A stretch of 64,000 nt of DNA. Source: an uncultured Bacteroidales bacterium. Lineage in GTDB: Bacteria; Bacteroidota; Bacteroidia; Bacteroidales; UBA7960. This document shows positions 6,489-62,928 of the stretch, piece by piece. The DNA lies in assembly GCA_964348755.1 (NCBI GenBank), contig CAYGDW010000004.1, positions 18,766-82,765 of the forward strand, written 5' to 3'. The position numbers were made by a program, and so were the translations under genes. Below the pieces are notes generated by a model. It was not told the origin of the DNA, did no database searches, and saw only the letters and a list, made by a program, of their open reading frames with translations. How positions within the stretch are numbered: position 1 is the stretch's first letter; every line of letters starts with the position of its first letter.

Positions 6489-7981
6489 GACACTTTATGG
6501 CTTTCGTTTTCCTTTTCAACCAATGGCTGCAATTTTTTTTTGCTTTTCGCAATAGTATTTCCGATAATAATAAATAACAAGGCTGCACCCACTGCCACAT
6601 AGGTGTCTTCAATGTCAATAATTCCCAAAATGCGAAGCAAAATGTTTACCAGCACGGCGAGTGTACCGCCAAAAAACGCCAGCCTAACGCCTTCAAGGGT
6701 AATCCAGCCGCGTTTATAAATGCCCATCATAATAACAATAGCGCCTATGGCCCTAATGCCGTATGAAATATAGGCCGTGCTGAGTATTGCGCCCGATGCA
6801 AAAAACGCCAGTGGAATAGTAAAAAGGTTGACTATGATAACCAATTTTCGGGCTGTTGAGATTATTTTCTGATCGGGAGCGGTTTTGTTTATCAGTCCGT
6901 GGTAAATGTCTTTTGTTGCTATAGTTACCACTGCAAAGTTTACCGGGCCAACGGTCGAAAGTATAGCTGCAAATATTCCCGAAAGGGCAATGCCTCCAAG
7001 CACCGGGTGTATAAATTCGGGAGTTACCATTAGGGTAGGCAGCACCATTTTGGGGTTTATCGCTTGCAGGGCGCCGTCCCAAAGGGGGCTGCCCGGCCCG
7101 GTGGTGCTAAAAAAGTTTCCGGTTTTTGCCACCAGGCCCAATAGCGCAACCAGAATTCCGAAAGGTGCAATAATAAATGCCGACAGAATTGCTGATTTTT
7201 TTGCTATTGAAGCGCTTCGAGCAGCAAATATGGGTTGTATGCTGGCTTGCCCTGCCATGCCTCCGAGTACGCCTCCCAAAATAAGGCTCCAGGCAAAGCC
7301 CAACCCTCCGCTAAATGGGTTGTAAAGGTTTTCAGGCGACCCCTGGGCAATTAAGGTTTCCCTGAGGGCTGCAAATCCACCAACTTCGTTTACACCAACA
7401 AAAGCGGCTGTGCCAATGCCAAAAAACATTACAATAACATGTATTATGCCTGTAATTGCCAGAGCATGCATGCCACCAACATAGGTATAAATGGTAATTA
7501 CTACAGAAGAAATAATAACCGATTGCAGCCATGAAGTGTCAAACATTGCCGAAATGACACTGGCTGCAGTTTGGAGCTGTACAAAGGCCAGCACAATATA
7601 AGCAAACAGAAAGGCAATGGCCGAGATTGCCCGGGCCCGTTTCCCGAAAAGATTTTCGAGCATTTCGCTGACAGTATGCACATTGTTTTCGCGGTAGTGG
7701 CGCGCCACGGTAAATCCGATAATCACCATGCCAATGGCCGTGGAGATGTTGTAAAGTATGGGCTGCATGGTGCCCGTGGTAAAGGCTTTTTCACTCACAC
7801 CTATGGTGCTCATACCGCCAAGCCATTCAGAAGCTACCACAACCGCACAGGCAATTACGCCAAGGTTGCGGCCGGCAACCAAATAATCGGCAGCCGAACG
7901 GCTTGCAACTTTTTTTGTTAATAATGAAATAATGGTAATAAGGCCAAAGTAGGCTACAACAATAAGCAGGTATATGTTCAT
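6485..7981 (-). CDS. sodium:solute symporter family transporter
   Basis: 498 aa and highly hydrophobic with many predicted TM segments. YLVAGRNLG near the N-terminus is the SSF hallmark. Its stop overlaps the CoA-transferase start as ATGA. Confidence 0.75.
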   Translation of the reverse strand: MNIYLLIVVAYFGLITIISLLTKKVASRSAADYLVAGRNLGVIACAVVVASEWLGGMSTIGVSEKAFTTGTMQPILYNISTAIGMVIIGFTVARHYRENNVHTVSEMLENLFGKRARAISAIAFLFAYIVLAFVQLQTAASVISAMFDTSWLQSVIISSVVITIYTYVGGMHALAITGIIHVIVMFFGIGTAAFVGVNEVGGFAALRETLIAQGSPENLYNPFSGGLGFAWSLILGGVLGGMAGQASIQPIFAARSASIAKKSAILSAFIIAPFGILVALLGLVAKTGNFFSTTGPGSPLWDGALQAINPKMVLPTLMVTPEFIHPVLGGIALSGIFAAILSTVGPVNFAVVTIATKDIYHGLINKTAPDQKIISTARKLVIIVNLFTIPLAFFASGAILSTAYISYGIRAIGAIVIMMGIYKRGWITLEGVRLAFFGGTLAVLVNILLRILGIIDIEDTYVAVGAALLFIIIGNTIAKSKKKLQPLVEKENESHKVS

Positions 7982-11117: not shown

Positions 11118-12107
11118 CTAAAAACTTGGACAGTTTAGTATGCGATAACGTTGCTTTTTTGCATTGCAATGCAAATTCAGTAAAACACTTATTTCGTGGG
11201 TGCCATTAAAAATTCCTGAAAACCCCGACAGTGAATGATCGTAGCTGTAGGCTACCCGGTAATTACCCGGGTTGAGGCCTATCATAAAAATAAGGGTTTC
11301 TGGCAGATTTAAATCCTGCCTGAGCCACACTCCGGCAACAAATTGCGAAATGCCAGCATAAATTCCGTAATTTAAGCGGTGGTGGGCACCCTGGTTCTGA
11401 TATATTACGTTTGGAGAAAGAAAAAATTGTTCTGTTGGTGAAGTTGTTGAGCTTTTTTGAATTATTGGAATATGCATTCCGGCATGGGCTGTTATTTTTA
11501 GCGGAAGCGGCTGGTTGTGGCCAAAGAAGCTTTGATTGGGGCGGGTAAGGTGGTGAATGGCTGCCCCGCCATAAAAACGCTCATTAAATAGCAGGACACC
11601 AGCCCCAAAATCTGCGGCATGCCGCCAGGTTTTGTCTGGAGGGGGTTCGGTTTGTGGGTTGATTATCCCGGTGCCTGTATCGAACTGGTCGGCAAAAATC
11701 AGTCTGTCCCAGTTAAGGTCATTGCGAAGATAACCTGCCTGAACCCCAAAATTGAGATAAAAATCGCGGGTAAGCCGTAAATGCAGGCTGTAAATGGCGC
11801 TTATGTGGTTGCGCATTAAAAGGCCGCCTTGGTGGTCGCTGGTAAGCAACACCCCCAACCCGCCTCTGAGGGCATCAACAGCCCGATCGAAAGAAAAATT
11901 GTACGTTGAAAATGTGCCGAAATCGGGCCAAGGCTGGTTGCGGTAATTAAAAACGAGCCTCGGGCATTGGCCCGTGCCGGCAAATGCCGGATTTAAATAT
12001 ACCGGCGCCGAAAAAAATTGCGAAAAAATTGCGTCCTGTCCATGAGCAGGTAACGAATTTGCTGCAAGAAAAAATATGAGAATCAGGTCAATCGGGTTTT
12101 TTCTCAT
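11118..12107 (-). CDS. PorP/SprF-family type IX secretion system membrane protein
   Basis: 329 aa with a signal peptide, followed by QDAIFSQFFSAPVYLNPAFAG, the PorP/SprF family N-terminal motif. The remainder has beta-barrel-like composition. Confidence 0.8.
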   Translation of the reverse strand: MRKNPIDLILIFFLAANSLPAHGQDAIFSQFFSAPVYLNPAFAGTGQCPRLVFNYRNQPWPDFGTFSTYNFSFDRAVDALRGGLGVLLTSDHQGGLLMRNHISAIYSLHLRLTRDFYLNFGVQAGYLRNDLNWDRLIFADQFDTGTGIINPQTEPPPDKTWRHAADFGAGVLLFNERFYGGAAIHHLTRPNQSFFGHNQPLPLKITAHAGMHIPIIQKSSTTSPTEQFFLSPNVIYQNQGAHHRLNYGIYAGISQFVAGVWLRQDLNLPETLIFMIGLNPGNYRVAYSYDHSLSGFSGIFNGTHEISVLLNLHCNAKKQRYRILNCPSF

Positions 12108-12210
12108 TCATTAGCCGGCTTCTTCCTGTTTTCTTAAACGAAAAAAAAAGCCCGTTGTTTCGAAGGCTCAGTTTTTTATCGCTTCAACAGCTAATTTTAT
12201 ATTTTTTTTG

Positions 12211-12416
12211 CACTATTGTCCGATAAAGTAAAAAAGGGTAGAGTTTTATGCATGAGATTCCTCCCTACGTTCGGAATGACAGTCTGTTAGCTTTTTATTA
12301 AGGGGGGTAGGTGATAGCTTCGTCGCCACCTACCCCCCTTAATTGCCAAAATCATTGAAAGCCCTGTCATTACGAGCGGAGCGAGAAATCTCGTAATTTT
12401 TGTCGGCCAGTATTAA
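12211..12416 (+). mobile_element. MITE-like palindromic repeat element, copy 1 (206 bp)
   Basis: The termini CACTATTGTCCGATAAA... and ...TTTTGTCGGCCAGTATTAA form an imperfect TIR. Internal features are the GGAATGACAG and CTGTCATTACGAGCGG boxes and a central hairpin at 12302-12338. The element is flanked by the identical 8-mer TTTTTTTG at 12203-12210 and 12417-12424. Confidence 0.8.
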
Positions 12417-12600
12417 TTTTTTTGAGTAAATACCTTAAAAAGTGTGTCAGGATTGCGAATTTTGTGTGAAAATATTGAAAAGAAAAGGTCGTTATAAACA
12501 AGTAGCCAACCCATTTTGTTGTTAATGCAATTTGGTGGCAGGTTGCTGTTTTTCATGCAGGGTTTTGGGTGCATGGTTATTCCTGGAGAAATTTTATAGA

Positions 12601-15600
12601 ATGTTCAAAAATTTTCTGGTTATTTTTCTTTTGTTGCTGGCTGTGATATGTCATGGCCAGGGCATTACAAGTAAGCATAGTTTAAACTGGCATGCGCCAC
12701 AGCGTGTTATGCCCGAACCGGGTGTTTTTACTGATATTTTGTCGTTTTCAGGGGCTGTTTATGCCGATACACTGCCCAATATTCCCATGTTTTCAACAAC
12801 TTCGGCAAACCCCGCTCCTTTTTATACCACCAATTTTGCTATTGCCAATGCCGGGTTTGAACCGGCAAGTGCCGAAGAATCGCGCATTTTGCACCAAGCA
12901 GGTTTTGAGGCCAACGAAATAGTATTGTTTCAGACCCAACAAACCATCAGAAAAGAGTCGGGCTCGGTGGTTTCGTTTTTTCCTTTCAGAAAAAATCCTG
13001 AAAACGGGAAGTATGAAAAGTTGATTTCTTTCGAACTGACCAAAGAATTAACCTTGCACCCTGAATTCTCTTATAAGTCGTTGCACAATTACCCCGAAAA
13101 CTCAGTGCTTTCGACCGGTACCTGGTTTAAGTTTTGTGTAGATGAAACTGGAGTTTATCAGCTCACTCATTCTGATTTGGCTGCCTTGGGTTTAAACATG
13201 GCTGGTTTGCAAAAAGCCAATATCAGAATTTTTGGCAATGGCGGTGGCATACTTCCTGAAGCCAATAGTAACACGCGCATTACCGACCTCAGAGAAAATG
13301 CAATTTTTATTTCGGGTACCCCTTCAGGTTTATTTGGGCAAAGCGATTTTATTTTATTTTACGGGCAGTCGCCCAACCAGTGGATTTTTGATCCAACAAA
13401 CAAAGTGTTTAATCATCAGGTGCATAATTATACCACCGAAAATTGTTACTTCCTCACTCCTGACAATGGCCCCGGTAAGCGCATAGGATCCCGGGCTGGT
13501 GTTTCGCAAAATCCAACCCATAACGTTACATCTTTTCAGGATTATGCCTATCATCAGCTCGACCAGGTAAACCTGATAGGGAGTGGAAGAACCTGGTTTG
13601 GCGAAGTGTTTGATGCCACGCTAAACAGGGAGTTTAGCTTCGACTTTCCCGACCTGCTCCTAACCGAGCCAGCCCGGATCAAAACTTTTGTAGCCGCACG
13701 CTCAACCGTCAACAGCAGCTTTACGGTTGAGGCAGGTGCCGGGAAAATTACCCAGCAAATTAGCCGTATATTCCCAGCAAACTTTACCGGGGCATTTGCC
13801 AATTTGGCCATCGACTCCTTGTGGTTTACACCAACTCAGGCTGGTCAGATCAGGGTAAATATTACCTATAATCGCCCATTGGCCGGATCGCGCGGTTGGT
13901 TAAATTACATTGCCCTGAATGTAACCCGCCAGCTCAGGTTCAACGCTCCGCAACTTGCCTTCAGAAATGTGCACCTGCCAGGGCCCGAAAATATTGTGCA
14001 ATACAACCTGGCTAATGCCAACAACCAAATAACAGTATGGGATGTAACCGACCGATTTAATGTAACCCAGCAACAGACCTCATTGAGCGGAAACACACTG
14101 CAGTTCAGACTCCAGGGAGGCGGTTTGCCCGAATTTGTGGCATTTGATGGCTCCTCATTTAAAAAAGTAAAGAACAGGGGTCGTATCGAAAACCAAAACC
14201 TGCATGGCATGCAATCTTCCGACATGATTATTGTTGTGCCCGAGGCATTCAGGGCAGAAGCCCGCAGGCTTGCCGATTTTCGTACGCTGCACAATGGCAT
14301 TAGTGTGGCAGTGGTAACTACCAATCAGGTATTTAACGAATTTTCGTCGGGCTCGGCCGACATTGCTGCCATTCGCAATTTCATGAAAATGCTTTATGAC
14401 CGGGCCCAAACCCAGACTCAAATGCCTCGTTATCTGTTGCTCTTCGGAAACGGAACTATCGATAACCGCAACCTTCTTGGATTTGGAGGAAACCATATAC
14501 CAACCTGGCAAAGTATCAATTCGCACCAGTTAGACCGGTCTTACATGACCGACGATTTCTTTGGCCTGCTCGACGATTCGGAAGGCAATAATGCCGACGG
14601 AAGCCTTGATATTGGAATAGGTCGGCTGCCAATCCGCACACTTGATGAGGCCCGGGTAGTGGTAGATAAAATAATAAGGTACAACCAGCGTGTTCCTGCT
14701 TTAAACCCCCTCACAAACGATTTACAGCAAAGCGGCATTATTTCCAACTACGCCGATTGGCGCAACCGGGTTGTTTTAATTGCCGACGACCAGGACTTTA
14801 ACCGCCATTTTATCGATTCGGAAGCCATTGCCAGCATCATGCAAACCAATTTTCCACTTTTTAATGTAGATAAAATTTATTTTGATGCTTACCCGCAGGT
14901 TACCCTTGCTGGGGGTGCACGTATTCCTGATGTGAACAAGGCCATTAATGAGGCCGTAAACCAGGGTGCCCTGCTTATAAACTACATTGGCCATGGAGGT
15001 GCTCTTGGCCTTGGCCACGAAAGGGTGTTAACTTTTGAGGATATTGCTACCTGGAATAATTATTATAACCTCCCTGTGTTCATGACTGCCACCTGCGAGT
15101 TTTCGAGCTTTGACCATCCCAACCCATCAGATGTTACTGCAGGGGTACGTATTTTTATGAAGCCCGACGGGGGAGCCTCAGCCCTTTTTACCACTACAAG
15201 GCTTGCCTGGTCGGGCCCTAACCTTACCCTTAACCGGAACTTTATAGAGGTTGCTTTTGACAAAAACCAACAGGGGCGATATCAAAACCTGGGTGACTTG
15301 ATACGGCTTTCAAAGGTAAAAAGCAGCGGAAGCCTCGAAAGCTGGCGAATTCGCAATTTTGTGCTACTGGGCGACCCTTCAATGCAAATGGCTTACCCCC
15401 AATACCAGGTTATTACCAGCCAAATGCCCGATACCCTGAGGGCATTCCAAAAGGTAACCGTAAGCGGGTTTGTAGCCGATGAAACTGGGAACCCTCTTAC
15501 AAATTACAATGGCATTGTATCGCCCACCGTTTTTGATAAAGAAAGAACTTTTAGAACTCTTGGACAAGACAGCGACAGCTTTGAAGCAAATTTTACAATA

Positions 15601-24238: not shown

Positions 24239-24808
24239 TTAGCGGTTTTGTACAAACTCCAGAAAAGCTTCGGTTTCTTGGTTTAATTGTTCGGGGTTGC
24301 CATTGTTGTTTATTACATAATCGGCCTGCCTTATACATTCGGCCAGATTTTGTTTGTTCGAATCATCAGAATTCATTTCGCGTTGCTCGTTGCTCAAAAA
24401 GGTGTCGAAAGATACATTGTCGGTTTCAGAATTTCTTTTCCTTATGCGTAGGTAGCGAATTTGAGGGTCGGCATCAACGGCCAGCAAAAAAAATCCGGGG
24501 AAACTTCTTAGGGAAGCAATTTCGCCGGGGGTTCTGATGCTCTCAATAATACAGTTCTGATTTAGGGTGGCGGCCTCCTTGTACAGCTGCTCAATTATGT
24601 ATGAGGGGCTGTTTTGTGCCCGAAGTTCATTGGCAAGCGCCGTAAGGGTGTCGCGGTTTACGGGCAGGCCGCGCGCATTAAGCTCGCGCGCAATAAAAGC
24701 CCGCACCGAAAAGTGAGCAAACCCTTTGTTCTGTGTAAGGTAATCGACCACAGTGCCCTTTCCTGCACCCAATGTGCCTGTTATTCCAATTATTATCTTG
24801 TCTTTCAT
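24239..24808 (-). CDS. P-loop nucleotide kinase-like protein (dephospho-CoA kinase / dNMP kinase-like)
   Basis: 189 aa. The P-loop GITGTLGAGKGTV lies at the N-terminus. Size and layout match small nucleotide kinases, but specificity is not assignable. Confidence 0.55.
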   Translation of the reverse strand: MKDKIIIGITGTLGAGKGTVVDYLTQNKGFAHFSVRAFIARELNARGLPVNRDTLTALANELRAQNSPSYIIEQLYKEAATLNQNCIIESIRTPGEIASLRSFPGFFLLAVDADPQIRYLRIRKRNSETDNVSFDTFLSNEQREMNSDDSNKQNLAECIRQADYVINNNGNPEQLNQETEAFLEFVQNR

Positions 24809-24964
24809 TAACCAAAAATACTTATTTTAACACCATTGTCCGATTGAAACGTACATGTTTGCGAATTAAACACAAACACCTTTGAACCGAAAGTCAGCGA
24901 AACTAACCGAAGTTCAGCGAAGCTAAAATAGCAAACATGGAGTTCCATCCGACCTTAATTTAAA

Positions 24965-25168
24965 AATTATTTACGGATGAAAATGACGGGATTTCTCGCT
25001 CCGCCCCAAATAACGAGGTTTTCAGCGGTTTTGGGGAAGATCGGTGGTTGGAGGCGGCCAAGCCGCCGCCAACCACCGATCAAAAAACTTACTGTCTGTC
25101 ATTCCGAATGCAGTGAAGAACCTCAACCACGTAATTCTTCCGGTATTTGATTTTGTCGGGAAATAATG
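24965..25168 (-). repeat. degenerate copy 2 of the MITE-like palindromic element
   Basis: It has the same order of parts as copy 4: AAAATGACGGGATTTCTCGCTCCGCC, then the hairpin at 25039-25081, then CTGTCATTCCGAATGCAGTGAAGAACCTC, then TTTTGTCGGGAAATAATG. The termini have diverged and I could not define a clean flanking duplication. Confidence 0.65.
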
Positions 25169-25239
25169 TTATTTTAATAAAACCATCAGGTATAAAGGCA
25201 AGGTGGGCTAAAGAGTCCGGAAAAGCCCAGGAGATTCAA

Positions 25240-44531: not shown

Positions 44532-44605
44532 TAGCGGGGACGAGAGTTGAACTCGTGACCTTCGGGTTATGAATCCGACGCTCTAACCACCTGAGCTACC
44601 CCGCC
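44532..44605 (-). tRNA. tRNA with CAU anticodon (elongator Met, or Ile2 if lysidine-modified)
   Basis: I folded the cloverleaf by hand: acceptor GGCGGGG/CCCCGCU (G1.U72), D arm GCUC-AGGUGGUUA-GAGC, anticodon arm UCGGA-UUCAUAA-CCCGA (31-39 is A.C), variable loop AGGUC, T arm ACGAG-UUCAACU-CUCGU, discriminator A. CCA is not encoded. Confidence 0.85.
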
Positions 44606-49657: not shown

Positions 49658-49764
49658 AATTGCATTATTTAAAGTTTAAACTTAACCAACCTTTTTAGTA
49701 TAAGGCAATAAATGAAATCCTGCAGTCCAATTCAATCCTTAAACTAAGAAGATAGGTTTAATAA

Positions 49765-49971
49765 CACTATTGTCCGAAACAGTAAAATAGGATAGGATTT
49801 TATGCATGAGATTGCTTAATACGTTTGGAATGACAGTTAGTTAGCTTTTTATTAAGGGTGGGAAGGTGGCAGCGAAGCCGCCACCTTCCCCTCTCTATTG
49901 CCAAAACCAATAAAAGCCCTGTCATTTAGAGCGGAGGGAGAAGTCTGGTAATTTTTATCGGCCAGTAGAGA
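49765..49971 (+). mobile_element. MITE-like palindromic repeat element, copy 3 (207 bp)
   Basis: It is collinear with copy 1 along its full length, with a hairpin at 49860-49890. The identical 8-mer TTTAATAA flanks it at 49757-49764 and 49972-49979. Confidence 0.8.
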
Positions 49972-49980
49972 TTTAATAAT

Positions 49981-50018
49981 AAAAAAAGAGGCGACCTGGG
50001 CAGGGTCGCCTCTTTTTT
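49981..50018. terminator. bidirectional rho-independent terminator between convergent genes
   Basis: A perfect 10-bp stem AGAGGCGACC / GGTCGCCTCT encloses a 7-nt loop. AAAAAAA precedes it and TTTTTT follows it. It lies 15 nt beyond the stop of the MFS gene. Confidence 0.8.
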
Positions 50019-50032
50019 GTAAAAAGGTTGTT

Positions 50033-51715
50033 TTATTTATGGTTTGAAGGCAGTTCCAGCCCGTAACCTTGCTCTTTATCTGCTTTTTTGAGCATAAAAG
50101 CCAGGAATATGGAAATAATGCCACAGACTACAAGCATTAGAATTGGCCAGGTATAATCGTAATATGGCACTTCACCTGCAGCCTGCATAGCTTTTAGCTG
50201 GTAAGCAATTTCACCGCCCGTAAGACCCTGAGCCGAAAGGTTTGCTCTTACATCGTCGATGGTTTTTACTACAACCGGATTTACTTTGTAAAGCAAAGCA
50301 CCAATGCCCCAGAAAAATGCGCCAAGTCCCCAGTTTTGTACAGTAAACATGGTGGCATAGGCTGTTCCGAGCCGGTTTTCGGGAACAATCTTGGCTACCG
50401 ATGGCCACATGGCTGCCGGTACAAGTGAAAAAGCAACCCCCAGGCTTAGCAAACCAAAATATGCCAAAATCGGAGATTCAAAAATAGAGAGCGAAAGGTG
50501 AGCAAATATAAGAAGCAACGAACCAAGGATCATTAGCGATGCAGCTTTGCCTTTGCGGTCAACATAGCTGCCAAAAATAGGCGTGAAGATTATGGTGCCC
50601 AGCGGAATCAGAGAGGCTGTCTTTGGCCCGTTGACCAGCCAAATACCGAGCGTATCGCGAACCAGGTAAACAGCAATGGCAAAAACACCTATAATGGTAA
50701 ACAGAGCAAGCCTTTTGGCGCTCTTTTCCCTGAGGTATTTTGGAACAAGGGTTACCGAAAGTGCAAACAAGAATATTACCAGATAAACTGCGGTGCTGCC
50801 AAGAGCTTCACTGCCAAAAAGAATTACAGCTGCCCCTTCGGGAAGCACATAACTAAAGCCAAACTTATTTACCAGCAGATCGGGTGCATATTGAATAAAG
50901 GGGAATACGGCCGAGTAAAAGGCCACGCAGAGCAATGCAATAAAAATAAACGATTTGTTGGTTACCAGCTTCACCAGGTCGGAGAATTTGAATTCATCAT
51001 CGGCGGCCTGGGCCTTTTCTTTGGCATCCACTGCGTCCTGGTCAAGCCCTTGTTCCTTATAAAGTGCAGCCTTATTGGCTTTTACCTGCTTGTCAATTTT
51101 AATGTCGAAGAAAAGGTAAGTAACAAAGAATATGAGTGACAAGCCTATGAGCGAAGCGGCAAACACCGCTGCCGGCGATACCTGCACCCCTGCAATGTCG
51201 AGCGAAATAGCAATGGCAAGGGCCGAACCCAATCGACCAAAAGCCATATTGATAGCCATGGCAAGTGCCAACTCATACCCCTTAAACCATTTTACAATGG
51301 TGCGGCTTACCACCACGCAAACCACTTCAAGGCCAGAGCCAAAAAGGATACGCCCCACAATAAGACCGGTAAGAACAGTAGATTTTTCCTCGCCAAAAAA
51401 GCCCGACGATGCCAAAGCTGTAATGAGGCCACCAACTGCGGCCAAACTGCCAAATGCCAGACCGGCCAGTCGAATGCCCCATTTATCAAGAATAATGCCT
51501 CCGATAATTATCATGCCAAACACGTTGGCTATGGTGGTTAGACCTATTATTCTTCCAAACTCCTCGCTGTTTATACCCAGGTCGGTCTCCATCAGGCTGC
51601 GAAGTGGCGAAAAGAAATCCTGAAAATAATACGTGGAGAACATTAAACTGCTCACCAGTACAAGCACCAGCCAGCGGAAAGCCGGAGTCTCATTGATTAG
51701 TTTTTGTCGTTGCAT
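50033..51715 (-). CDS. MFS transporter with a long central hydrophilic loop
   Basis: 560 aa arranged as 6+6 hydrophobic segments, split by a charged loop (KQVKANKAALYKEQGLDQDAVDAKEKAQAADDE). Confidence 0.7.
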   Translation of the reverse strand: MQRQKLINETPAFRWLVLVLVSSLMFSTYYFQDFFSPLRSLMETDLGINSEEFGRIIGLTTIANVFGMIIIGGIILDKWGIRLAGLAFGSLAAVGGLITALASSGFFGEEKSTVLTGLIVGRILFGSGLEVVCVVVSRTIVKWFKGYELALAMAINMAFGRLGSALAIAISLDIAGVQVSPAAVFAASLIGLSLIFFVTYLFFDIKIDKQVKANKAALYKEQGLDQDAVDAKEKAQAADDEFKFSDLVKLVTNKSFIFIALLCVAFYSAVFPFIQYAPDLLVNKFGFSYVLPEGAAVILFGSEALGSTAVYLVIFLFALSVTLVPKYLREKSAKRLALFTIIGVFAIAVYLVRDTLGIWLVNGPKTASLIPLGTIIFTPIFGSYVDRKGKAASLMILGSLLLIFAHLSLSIFESPILAYFGLLSLGVAFSLVPAAMWPSVAKIVPENRLGTAYATMFTVQNWGLGAFFWGIGALLYKVNPVVVKTIDDVRANLSAQGLTGGEIAYQLKAMQAAGEVPYYDYTWPILMLVVCGIISIFLAFMLKKADKEQGYGLELPSNHK

Positions 51716-60818: not shown

Positions 60819-61210
60819 AATCCCCTAAAGGGTAAGATGTTTTAAATTGTCCCAACAGTCAGTTTATTTCTTTTATTTTATTGGGTTTACAGCCCAATGA
60901 AATAAATCTTTGTGAAGCGAGTCAGGTGTGGTTTTTTCGCAAATCGGGGTTAAAGATATTACCGCACAGTCAAATTTCAAAGAAAAATATGAAAGAATCT
61001 GGTTTTCAGTAAATTAAAACCATCGCAATCTGGTTCGTTTTATAATGAATAATTGTTTTGGGAAATAGTTGAAGAGTTTCCTCAATTGGGTCCGAATAAC
61101 CGGGCTTAAAATGGCTTTTTGCAAGGTTTTGAGCTGGCCAGATTGCCCGTTTGGGCTTAAACTGCCTTGCCGCACCAATTTTGCTATGTTTAATAATTTC
61201 TGTTATAGAA

Positions 61211-61415
61211 TCATCATTGTCCGATAAAAATGACGGGATTTATCGCTCCGCTCTAAATGACAGGGCTTTTATTGGTTTTGGCAATTTGGGGGGTAGGTGG
61301 CGGCTTCGCCGCCACCTACCCCCCTTAATAAAAAGCTAACTGACTGTCATTCCGAACGTATTTAGCAATCTCATGCATAAAATTCTACCCTTTTTTACTT
61401 TATCGGACAATAGTG
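61211..61415 (-). mobile_element. MITE-like palindromic repeat element, copy 4 (205 bp, inverted relative to copies 1 and 3)
   Basis: It has a perfect 13-bp TIR (ATTGTCCGATAAA at both ends) and a perfect 17-bp hairpin stem at 61288-61324. The flanking 8-mers TTATAGAA (61203-61210) and CTATAGAG (61416-61423) match at 6 of 8 positions, with an identical TATAGA core. Confidence 0.8.
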
Positions 61416-61527
61416 CTATAGAGTAGTGAAAGAAATAATTCAGGAATTATTTTTCGGAAGGTATTTGGGATTAACTGAAGTTGGCCTTTGCGATGAGACT
61501 GTTTTTTTTAATGGTTATTAGTGCCAA

Positions 61528-62928
61528 TTATTTCCTTTTGCTTAAAATGCTACCGGCAACCATCCCTGTAATGCTTGCACCCAGCCCAAATATTATTGGT
61601 TCAATTTGGGTATTGATTATCAGGAAAATAAGCCATACAGCCGTTCCTGCAATAATTGCTGCCAATGCCCCTTTGGTTGTTGCTTTTTTCCAGAAAAGTC
61701 CGGCTGTAAGCGGAACAAATAGAGAAACCAGCCCAACTGAGGCTGCTTCGCCCACCAACTCGTAAATGTTTCCCCGTCGCAAGGCCATTATCAGGGCAAT
61801 GGCCGAGACCACCAGCACCGAAAAGCGTGATATCCAGAGCAATTGCCTGTCAGTAACTTTTTTAAGGCGGGGTCTGATAATGTTCTCGCCGAAAATGGCC
61901 GATGGCACCAGCAGGGCCGAACTGGCCGTGCTTAAAATGGCCGACAGGAGCGCCCCGAAAAGGAGTATTTGCACCAATGGAGATGAGTACCGTGCAACCA
62001 GATTTGGGATAATCATCTGGCTGTCTTGCCCGGGATTAAGCAAGTCGGGTGCAAGGGTGCGGGCGGCCAGCACCAAAAGTAGCGGTATCATGGCCACCGA
62101 AATGTACATAAAAGCTGATATAAACGAGGCCCTTGCGGCAACCTTTTCTGAACGCGAAGCCATTACCCGCTGAAAAATATCTTGTCCGGCAACAGAGCCC
62201 AGCCCGATAGTGATCCAGGCTGCCACATAATTCAGGCTATGGTGCAGTTGGGGGTCAGGATATAGCCTAAAAAAACCATCAGGCGCATTTGCAAAAACTT
62301 CGCGAAAGCAAACAATACTGAAAATTTCCAGTGTTGCTGCAACCAGACCGGCCAGGATAAAAATCACCTGCATAAAATCAGTTACAGAGACCGACCACAT
62401 TCCCCCGATAAAAGTGTACATTGTAACCAGCAGACAGCCAATCAGTATCCCGTTTGTCAGTCCAACTCCGGTCAGGGTATCGGCAATTATGCCGAAGGCC
62501 ACCATTTGTGCAGCGGTTCAGGCCAGGTAAGTGAGCATTATGCAAATGCCGGCAAGGAGTTCGGTTAGCTGCCCATACCGGTTGCGGTAAAAGTCGCCCA
62601 GTGTAAGAAGCTTCATGCGGTAAAGCGGCTTTGCATAAAACAACCCTACCAGCAGCAGGCACAATGCGGCTCCAAACGGATCTCGAACAACGGCAATAAG
62701 CCCGCCATGGGCAAATTCAGAAGAAGCTCCTAAAATGGTTTCAGACCCAAACCAGGTTGCAAACAGGGTTGCGGTAACAATATATAGCGGCAAGCGACGG
62801 CCGGCAAGCAGGTAGTCTTCGGTATTGTGTACCAGCCGTGCAGCTAAAAGACCTACAATAATGGTTACTACAACATACAAGACCACAAAAAGAACCATGG
62901 TTTGCAAAATAATGGATAAGAAAAACAA
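61528..62928 (-). pseudogene. sodium:solute symporter family gene interrupted by one in-frame TGA (at 62520-62518)
   Basis: Track ORFs 62518..62928 and 61528..62505 are in the same frame. The junction reads ...MLTYLA-TGA-TAAQMVAFGIIAD.... Both halves are hydrophobic SSF-like sequence (YLLAGRRLP near the N-terminus). Confidence 0.75.

Follow-up and report, generated by a model that had tools for sequence, protein, structure and literature searches.

The 64,000-nucleotide stretch of DNA analysed here (hereafter the window) comes from an uncultured Bacteroidales bacterium (GCA_964348755.1, contig CAYGDW010000004.1, positions 18,766 to 82,765). Within it, the gene for a PorP/SprF protein (11118-12107, - strand) diverges from the gene for a PorU-type C25 peptidase, which is followed by porV. 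Among named relatives of the PorP protein, the nearest belong to uncultured Bacteroidales, and since PorU proteins in the relatives measure 1284-1285 aa, we place the porU start at the ATG at 12601 and not at the TTG at 12532. The spacer between the two genes holds a 205-bp element, at distances of 103 bp to the start of porP and 185 bp to that of porU, which is very probably a non-autonomous miniature transposable element with inverted-repeat ends (MITE) mobilised in trans by a transposase encoded elsewhere. The following features make up this element, referred to below as copy 1:

12202-12210, no strand: left target-site duplication, TTTTTTTTG
12211-12415, + strand: MITE copy 1, 205 bp, delimited by BLAST and by symmetric alignment of the inverted repeats
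12211-12228, + strand: left terminal inverted repeat, CACTATTGTCCGATAAAG, with 1 mismatch to the pattern CACTAYTGNCCGAYAAAA
12255-12280, - strand: left NTS-like hairpin box (named for a Neisseria repeat), GTCATTCCGAACGTAGGGAGGAATCT on the - strand
12298-12342, no strand: central GC-rich hairpin of 21 bp, TTAAGGGGGGTAGGTG...CACCTACCCCCCTTAA
12366-12391, + strand: right NTS-like hairpin box, GTCATTACGAGCGGAGCGAGAAATCT
12398-12415, - strand: right terminal inverted repeat, TAATACTGGCCGACAAAA on the - strand
12416-12424, no strand: right target-site duplication, ATTTTTTTG

The initial annotation, made from the letters alone, had described an element at 12211-12416 with a perfect 8-bp duplication. 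Read directly, that stretch does start with CACTATTGTCCGATAAA and end with TTTTGTCGGCCAGTATTAA, and TTTTTTTG abuts it on both sides (12203-12210 and 12417-12424). The right boundary and the duplication required refinement: aligning the inverted repeats symmetrically moves the right end to 12415, and because forty further family members show a 9-bp duplication and symmetric inverted repeats of 18-20 bp, the 8-mer is to be read as the inner part of a longer word. At copy 1, TTTTTTTTG and ATTTTTTTG match at 8/9 positions, with the inner eight bases identical. The right repeat has two mismatches to the 18-nt pattern CACTAYTGNCCGAYAAAA; its outermost three bases are degenerate (TAA in place of CAC), and the terminal ...TAGTG-3' conserved in the family is gone, a loss that probably leaves copy 1 unable to move now. 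The decayed right end, the 8/9 duplication and an identity of only 83-87% to the closest sister copies mark copy 1 as a probable relic, old and immobile.

BLAST of the element against the window returned three copies besides copy 1, with E-values from 1e-15 to 9e-67, as well as the interior matching its own reverse complement. The additional copies are:

49765-49970, + strand: MITE copy 2, with convergent genes on either side; duplication GTTTAATAA (49756-49764) / ATTTAATAA (49971-49979), 8/9
61212-61415, - strand: MITE copy 3; duplication TTATAGAAT (61203-61211) / CTATAGAGT (61416-61424), 7/9
24831-25168, - strand: MITE copy 4, a 338-bp variant whose core homologous to copy 1 is 24980-25168

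The match to copy 3 covers 61218-61415 on the - strand (87% identity, E 9e-67), that to copy 2 covers 49765-49967 (83%, E 5e-57), and that to copy 4 covers 24980-25168 on the - strand (69%, E 1e-15). A 19-base pattern built from the left ends of the window copies occurs three times in the window against 0.15 expected, a count reached in none of 100 shuffles. Of the further copies proposed by the initial annotation, the one at 49765-49971 stands as described, with TTTAATAA flanking both sides perfectly under that reading. The inverted copy placed at 61211-61415 is present, with 6/8 agreement between TTATAGAA and CTATAGAG at the proposed 8-mer offsets instead of a perfect duplication. The family of four is borne out by the BLAST match to copy 4, which extends beyond the homologous core to 338 bp. 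Copy 4 has a perfect 9-bp duplication, TTATTTTAA, at 24822-24830 and 25169-25177, and its terminal repeats pair 24831-24848 with 25151-25168; the added length comprises a unique module of ~135 nt (24831-24965) that closes in its own terminal repeat. In the three short copies the right ends are decayed, reading TAA.., CTC.. and CAT.. against CAC.. in the family. The sole open reading frame (ORF) of at least 80 aa overlapping a window copy (49852-50124, over copy 2) looks spurious and overlaps the neighbouring MFS gene. By extrapolation, four copies in 64 kb suggest a high copy number in the host.

We scanned species-representative genomes (one genome per species) with a pattern made of the two internal boxes, and metagenomes with a pattern made of the right box and the right end of the element. 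The genome scan recovered full-length elements at four sites in a Saprospiraceae genome and in one Lentimicrobiaceae contig. Three loci remained: those from Falkowbacteria and Dehalococcoidia have the box alone in common with the element, and the Ignavibacteria locus, which has neither the box nor BLAST similarity, looks like a chance match to the pattern. The metagenome scan returned 41 loci. Members of the family are found in multiple copies at unrelated loci (4 in the window, 5 in species-representative genomes and 41 in metagenomes); they measure 202-356 bp and have no coding capacity. None of 38 members lies inside an ORF of at least 150 aa, which makes them intergenic, and the gene contexts are tandem in 16 cases, divergent in 9 and convergent in 2.

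The ends and flanks of these members define the family. Terminal inverted repeats are symmetric and 18-20 bp long, with the 20-nt consensus CACTAYTGACCGACAAAAAT at both ends of 38 copies; between the left and right consensus 20-mers there is a single difference, C versus T at position 6. Target-site duplications measure 9 bp, with a 9/9 match in 22 of the 40 complete elements and 8/9 in four more. As an offset control, left flanks were compared with right flanks displaced by 12 bases, which gave mostly 2-4/9 matches and a maximum of 6/9. The duplicated words are different at each distinct insertion site, and the perfect ones are 95% A+T and tend to AT-N5-AT (A at position 1 in 14/20, T at position 2 in 16/20, A at position 8 in 13/20 and T at position 9 in 17/20). 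The initial annotation had named copies without duplications elsewhere in the genome as an outcome that would tell against it; with perfect 9-mers at 22/40 elements, that outcome did not occur. A short-read contig from another sample stops 29 bases into the element, which fits a dispersed repeat. At one orthologous site, two related organisms both hold a family member (L043:7520-7786 and L045:357-703; L numbers denote fetched loci). Identity between the proteins encoded downstream is 79% and 92%, and the A-rich words on the flanks resemble each other. The elements measure 267 versus 347 nt, a difference suggesting that an old insertion common to both has been changing internally since.

The porP-porU spacer itself lacks the element in four of four syntenic relatives (PorP identity 82, 80, 74 and 70%), where gene order matches on both sides of the spacer, and BLAST for the element in the 21-kb loci of these relatives found no trace of it. 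At the position of the window's duplicated site, the 82% relative has one single CAAATAAAT; two 8-mers already standing in relatives, the second outcome held to speak against an insertion, were not found. Independent copies with their own different duplications, all intergenic, together with the absence in four syntenic relatives, support the MITE-like transposition originally proposed.

No transposase gene had been noticed in the window, and domain searches agree: among ~39 major ORFs scanned against Pfam (those left of 22.7 kb were identified by synteny with the relatives instead), we found housekeeping domains, six ORFs without a hit and no transposase domain. A search for an autonomous insertion sequence with matching ends, the follow-up suggested with the initial annotation, covered the window, fetched loci, viral contigs and plasmids and yielded none. 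When viral contigs were scanned with the terminal repeat, all 7 matches stood alone, lacking both a partner repeat and any homology to the element, and plasmid blastn returned nothing. In the 667 kb of fetched loci, pairs resembling the terminal repeats, 0.4-6 kb apart and flanked by a 9-bp duplication, amounted to a segmental duplication in L048. A generic search of the fetched loci for inverted repeats with duplications gave chance 10-mers only, and a search of them for multi-copy ORFs gave only a rhodanese/sulphur-transport gene.

Because the window has no transposase gene and no parent insertion sequence was found, the MITE would be moved in trans. We envisage a DNA transposon of ~205 bp without coding capacity, moved by cut-and-paste or copy-and-paste. 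The transposase, encoded elsewhere, would recognise the 18-20-bp terminal inverted repeats with consensus CACTAYTGACCGACAAAAAT and make cuts staggered by 9 bp at AT-rich targets of roughly the form AT-N5-AT, and repair of the staggered cuts would leave the 9-bp duplication. Three traits point to a transposase of the DDE type: the ends themselves, a staggered duplication fixed at 9 bp, and a target that is AT-rich and symmetric. Insertion-sequence families in ISfinder with 9-bp duplications include IS4 (IS10/IS50), IS256, IS1, ISAs1, the IS903 group, IS66 and ISLre2, none of which we identified as the parent. Several points weigh against a MITE mobilised in trans. The three short window copies have imperfect 9-bp duplications (8/9, 8/9 and 7/9), and the available relatives, of which the closest is at 82% protein identity, have diverged too far to show an empty site exact to the base. 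No autonomous element with matching ends turned up in the window, ~667 kb of fetched flanks, viral contigs or plasmids, so the transposase family and the mobilisation in trans are deduced from anatomy only. Genomes of uncultured Bacteroidota can be annotated with these ends, this duplication length and this target preference, which also help to explain contig breaks and provide a signature for tracing the parent insertion sequence.

The interior of the element is largely self-complementary, as first described, with a GGAATGACAG box, a GC hairpin and a CTGTCATT box. From outside to inside, its order is terminal repeats, an AT-rich stretch of ~25 nt, one inward-pointing 26-nt box per arm and the 21-bp GC hairpin. 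The box consensus is GTCATTYC-GA-RC-GNA-GY-GA-GRAATCT. Covariation in its outer four pairs is seen both from arm to arm and from genome to genome (TTCC/GGAA, TTTC/GAAA, TCCC/GGGA, TCTC/GAGA), its GA/GA positions are constant except in one degenerate L006 box, and a G-N-A triplet with a closing C:G usually forms its loop. The sequence d(C-GNA-G) forms a very stable DNA mini-hairpin, a stability that fits a role as single-stranded DNA.

The initial annotation likened the boxes of the GTCATTCCGAA type to short intergenic repeats of other Bacteroidota without being able to name a family; a named class, the NTS or Ssn-related motif, does exist (PMC11893778), and the tie to it is one of resemblance only. 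The Neisseria NTS reads CGTCATTCCCGCGMAVGCGGGAATCYRG, in the frame GTCATTCC...GGAATC (Chenal et al. 2025, PMC11893778). In Neisseria, a single-strand nuclease that modulates natural transformation acts on these hairpins (PMC11893778). The nuclease, SsnA, is a 94-aa GIY-YIG protein that binds NTS and cuts a few bases upstream, in single-stranded DNA only, the critical positions being the C following the palindrome and the three bases preceding it (PMC11893778). Our boxes show the oriented frame, in which GTCAT(T) stands 5' of the hairpin and (A)ATC 3' of it (GTCATTCC...GGAATCT and GTCATTTC...GAAATCT), and so have GTCATTCC-hairpin-GGAATC in common with Neisseria NTS/dRS3 and SRM repeats, including the decisive C and the bases preceding the palindrome (PMC11893778). 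They differ in the stem, which has tandem G.A positions and mostly a GNA triloop where NTS has CGCG...GCG. They also differ in setting: the boxes in the window are cargo in a transposon with terminal repeats and duplications, whereas NTS are free repeats. Within the window the boxes are confined to the four elements, and there are no free boxes.

The published SRM pattern, HGTCWYN(0-2)YYVSBRHN(0-5)WNVSBRGN(0-2)RNCYNB (PMC11893778), matched nothing in the window or in any MITE copy, though it found canonical boxes in L006 and L009. In both the Falkowbacteria and the Dehalococcoidia locus, canonical NTS-type boxes stand beside boxes of our GA type, and the clusters in these two genomes mean that the box class spans very distant phyla. 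The clusters combine canonical (GTCATTCCCGCGAAGGCGGGAATCT) and GA-type boxes, often as inverted pairs, at L006:1490-1850 and 7090-7166 and at L009:3766-6100. A motif search of the window and all fetched loci found no GIY-YIG ORF. A consensus GIY-YIG query fetched a family that is possibly not of the Ssn clade, with GA-type boxes near one of six loci; these searches tied no ssnA-type (cd10448 GIY-YIG) gene to the boxes. The failure of the SRM pattern, the lack of free boxes in the window, the lack of a GIY-YIG ORF and this single locus in six lead us to call the boxes NTS-like and not to file them as SRMs. As a lead and not a result, the boxes may act at the level of single-stranded DNA, since a GIY-YIG nuclease binds a motif of like frame in that form.

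The fetched genes encode small GIY-YIG proteins of 84-89 aa in candidate-phyla-radiation and other uncultured bacteria (L066:1823-2092, L068:3001-3270, L071:3001-3261, L075:2001-2261 and L077:2001-2261). They mostly lie within tRNA-like sequences or split other genes, in the manner of homing endonucleases; a YhcG/DUF1016 gene is cut by one of them into 282 + 75 aa, and another comes after an integrase fragment. Among these loci, GA-type boxes occur near L066 only.

Family members differ in length because of inserted hairpin units, which are either 24 nt (ACCTGTCCTGACCGCAGCGTCAGG) or 32 nt (ACTTGTCCCGATCGAATAAAATGAGCATCGGG) long. Their site inside the boxes is fixed, between ...TTCGG and AATGACAG, which on the box strand is directly after GTCATT, and they stand in 1-4 tandem copies on either arm. 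In all fetched DNA the units occur inside elements only, being seen in L035, L041 and L043 as well as in two pairwise comparisons; the window copies have none. In the first comparison (L036:12792-12994 versus L037:184-418), the 9-bp duplication is identical and the proximal flanks are near-identical, and the elements differ by one 32-nt unit and a few point differences. In the second (L042:12947-13198 versus L064:617-876), the flanks and the rest of the element are 100% identical and the units are different. This variation looks like a second, smaller layer of mobility, or it could be an assembly artefact in a repeat.

The element is of a well-known kind, a prokaryotic MITE, in a family that is apparently undescribed in uncultured Bacteroidota (Bacteroidales, Lentimicrobiaceae and Saprospiraceae); text searches of the literature with the terminal-repeat strings and GA-type box strings gave no relevant paper. 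Correia elements are small foldback MITEs of Neisseria, abundant between genes in a genome that also bears NTS/dRS3 repeats, and they have 26-bp ends and a TA duplication; they are not known to carry dRS3/NTS boxes. The best mechanistic analogue is MITEAba12/ISAba12 of Acinetobacter, in which the ISAba12 DDE transposase moves in trans a small element that has no coding sequence, has terminal inverted repeats of 16 bp and is flanked by AT-rich duplications of 9 bp (PMC6382973). MITEAba12 is unlike our element in its unrelated ends (GGCTTTGTTGCACAAA), its length of 113 bp, its lack of internal hairpin boxes and its known parent insertion sequence (PMC6382973). BrickBuilt and other Porphyromonas gingivalis MITEs are intergenic, belong to the same bacterial order and contain short tandem repeats in an array that varies (PMC4596501). 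Unlike our element, BrickBuilt has IS5-type ends (GAGACCTTTGCA), irregular duplications and a 23-nt minisatellite in place of hairpin units in boxes (PMC4596501). An IS5-derived P. gingivalis MITE (BrickBuilt, MITE239/464/700) was rejected, as the ends of our element read CACTAYTGACCGAC... and are not of the GAGACCTTTGCA type.

Of all its parts, only the element's NTS-like cargo and nested hairpin units could lead somewhere new. Taken together, they allow a broader but doubtful proposal, in which the MITE would be a vehicle for NTS-like hairpins recognised by a host Ssn-type nuclease or another hairpin-binding enzyme, which would also drive insertion and exchange of the 24- and 32-nt units. 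If true, this would be direct sequence evidence that hairpins of the NTS/SRM type are mobile at the level of single-stranded DNA, with a transposon moved by a DDE enzyme spreading nuclease target sites through a genome. If the boxes work as in Neisseria, the transposon would be distributing such sites, and the spread of NTS-type repeats would become directly testable.

It is very unlikely that the whole element is instead a palindromic repeat that the host has domesticated, like REP/BIME or NTS/NIME, spread through its internal hairpins by an HUH RAYT or a GIY-YIG Ssn-type enzyme. The GTCATTCC...GGAATC frame shared with Neisseria NTS, the canonical and GA-type boxes side by side in the Falkowbacteria and Dehalococcoidia loci, the covarying box stems and the extra 24- and 32-nt units at one fixed box position would all fit such a repeat. 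Systems of this kind leave no target-site duplication, however, whereas our family has clean 9-bp duplications and terminal repeats of 18-20 bp; for the same reason we discarded a REP/BIME or IS200/IS605-derived palindromic element, which would insert without a duplication and beside a short specific target. The mismatch with the published SRM pattern, the want of a GIY-YIG ORF in the window and fetched loci, and the restriction of the window's boxes to the four elements speak against it too. At most, such an enzyme could account for the internal units and not for movement of the whole element.

As to structure, copy 1 as a whole is a long foldback, folding as DNA at -40 kcal/mol (z -8.1) and as RNA at -83 kcal/mol (z -8.5). 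Over 35 distinct copies the central hairpin is 89% paired, with compensatory double changes at 12 of 21 pairs (48 cells). None of 500 shuffles reaches the observed values, and sliding the partners leaves 10-14 cells, so the pairing is maintained. Covariation in DNA palindromes can come about without selection, by template-switch correction of quasi-palindromes, and the pairing here may be kept by selection on structure or by such correction. The very stable predicted RNA fold, the strong covariation of the central hairpin and the intergenic position of all copies are what structured small-RNA genes or cis-regulatory RNAs (terminators, attenuators or mRNA stabilisers) with incidental flanking repeats might show. 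We regard this explanation as highly improbable, because neighbouring genes and their orientation vary (16 tandem, 9 divergent, 2 convergent), the 9-bp duplications are copy-specific, the element is absent at orthologous loci, the hairpin has no T-run after it on either strand and palindrome covariation needs no selection. Nor is there an Rfam match to the element: at the gathering score, Rfam 15 gave a tRNA (44532-44605) as the sole hit in the whole window, and the element searched at E up to 10 gave only sub-threshold, chance-level matches to microRNA hairpins. A conserved RNA gene with a fixed context, the last of the outcomes feared at the outset, thus did not emerge; some copies could nevertheless have an RNA-level side effect. 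The idea that the flanking 8- or 9-mers are chance words in AT-rich spacers, with the copies dispersed by recombination, draws on the AT-rich flanks and the low complexity of TTTTTTTG, and is refuted by perfect 9-mers at one fixed offset in 22/40 elements against a control never above 6/9 and by duplicated words that differ at every distinct site.

With the nearest relative at 82% PorP identity, the porP-porU spacer is alignable in blocks only. The alignment shows two conserved blocks, one beside each gene, with copy 1 in the variable middle and both blocks intact. These blocks (window 12136-12183 and 12471-12513) are kept across five genomes down to 70% PorP identity; the porP-side block reads TCCGTAACAA...TTTT.CGTTAAAG and the porU-side block CGTTATAAACAAGTA...AAAATATTGA. 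Probably they serve the type IX secretion genes as promoter or regulator sites. A scan with the Bacteroidetes promoter consensus TTTG-N17-23-TAnnTTTG found no site in copies 1-3 or at the junctions of copy 1, and a single weak match within the added module of copy 4; a promoter supplied by the element was rejected on the empty scan of copies 1-3. Lying in the variable mid-spacer, outside both conserved promoter-proximal blocks, copy 1 is probably of no consequence to porP and porU. That position and the empty promoter scan leave an influence on the secretion genes possible but unsupported. For the type IX secretion genes the finding is reassuring, as the insertion falls between the conserved promoter-proximal blocks and not within them.

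Several observations concern the surroundings of the other window copies. The extra module of copy 4 contains two direct repeats of ~20 nt and a 9-bp inverted repeat (GCAAACATG). Copy 4 ends 22 nt from the ATG of an AAA_18 kinase-like gene (24239-24808, - strand), at which the weak Bacteroidetes-type promoter match in the module (TTTG-N19-TACGTTTC, 24876-24846, - strand) is directed. Beside copy 3, a sodium:solute symporter gene (61528-62928, - strand) is broken into two ORFs, with 62518-62928 corresponding to Pfam SSF positions 1-93 and 61528-62505 to SSF positions 105-406; the split reflects either a frameshift or stop (a pseudogene) or a sequencing error. Directly past copy 2, between the convergent genes, a GC hairpin with an A-run and a T-run (aaaaaaagaggcgacc...ggtcgcctctttttt, 49985-50015) looks like a bidirectional intrinsic terminator.

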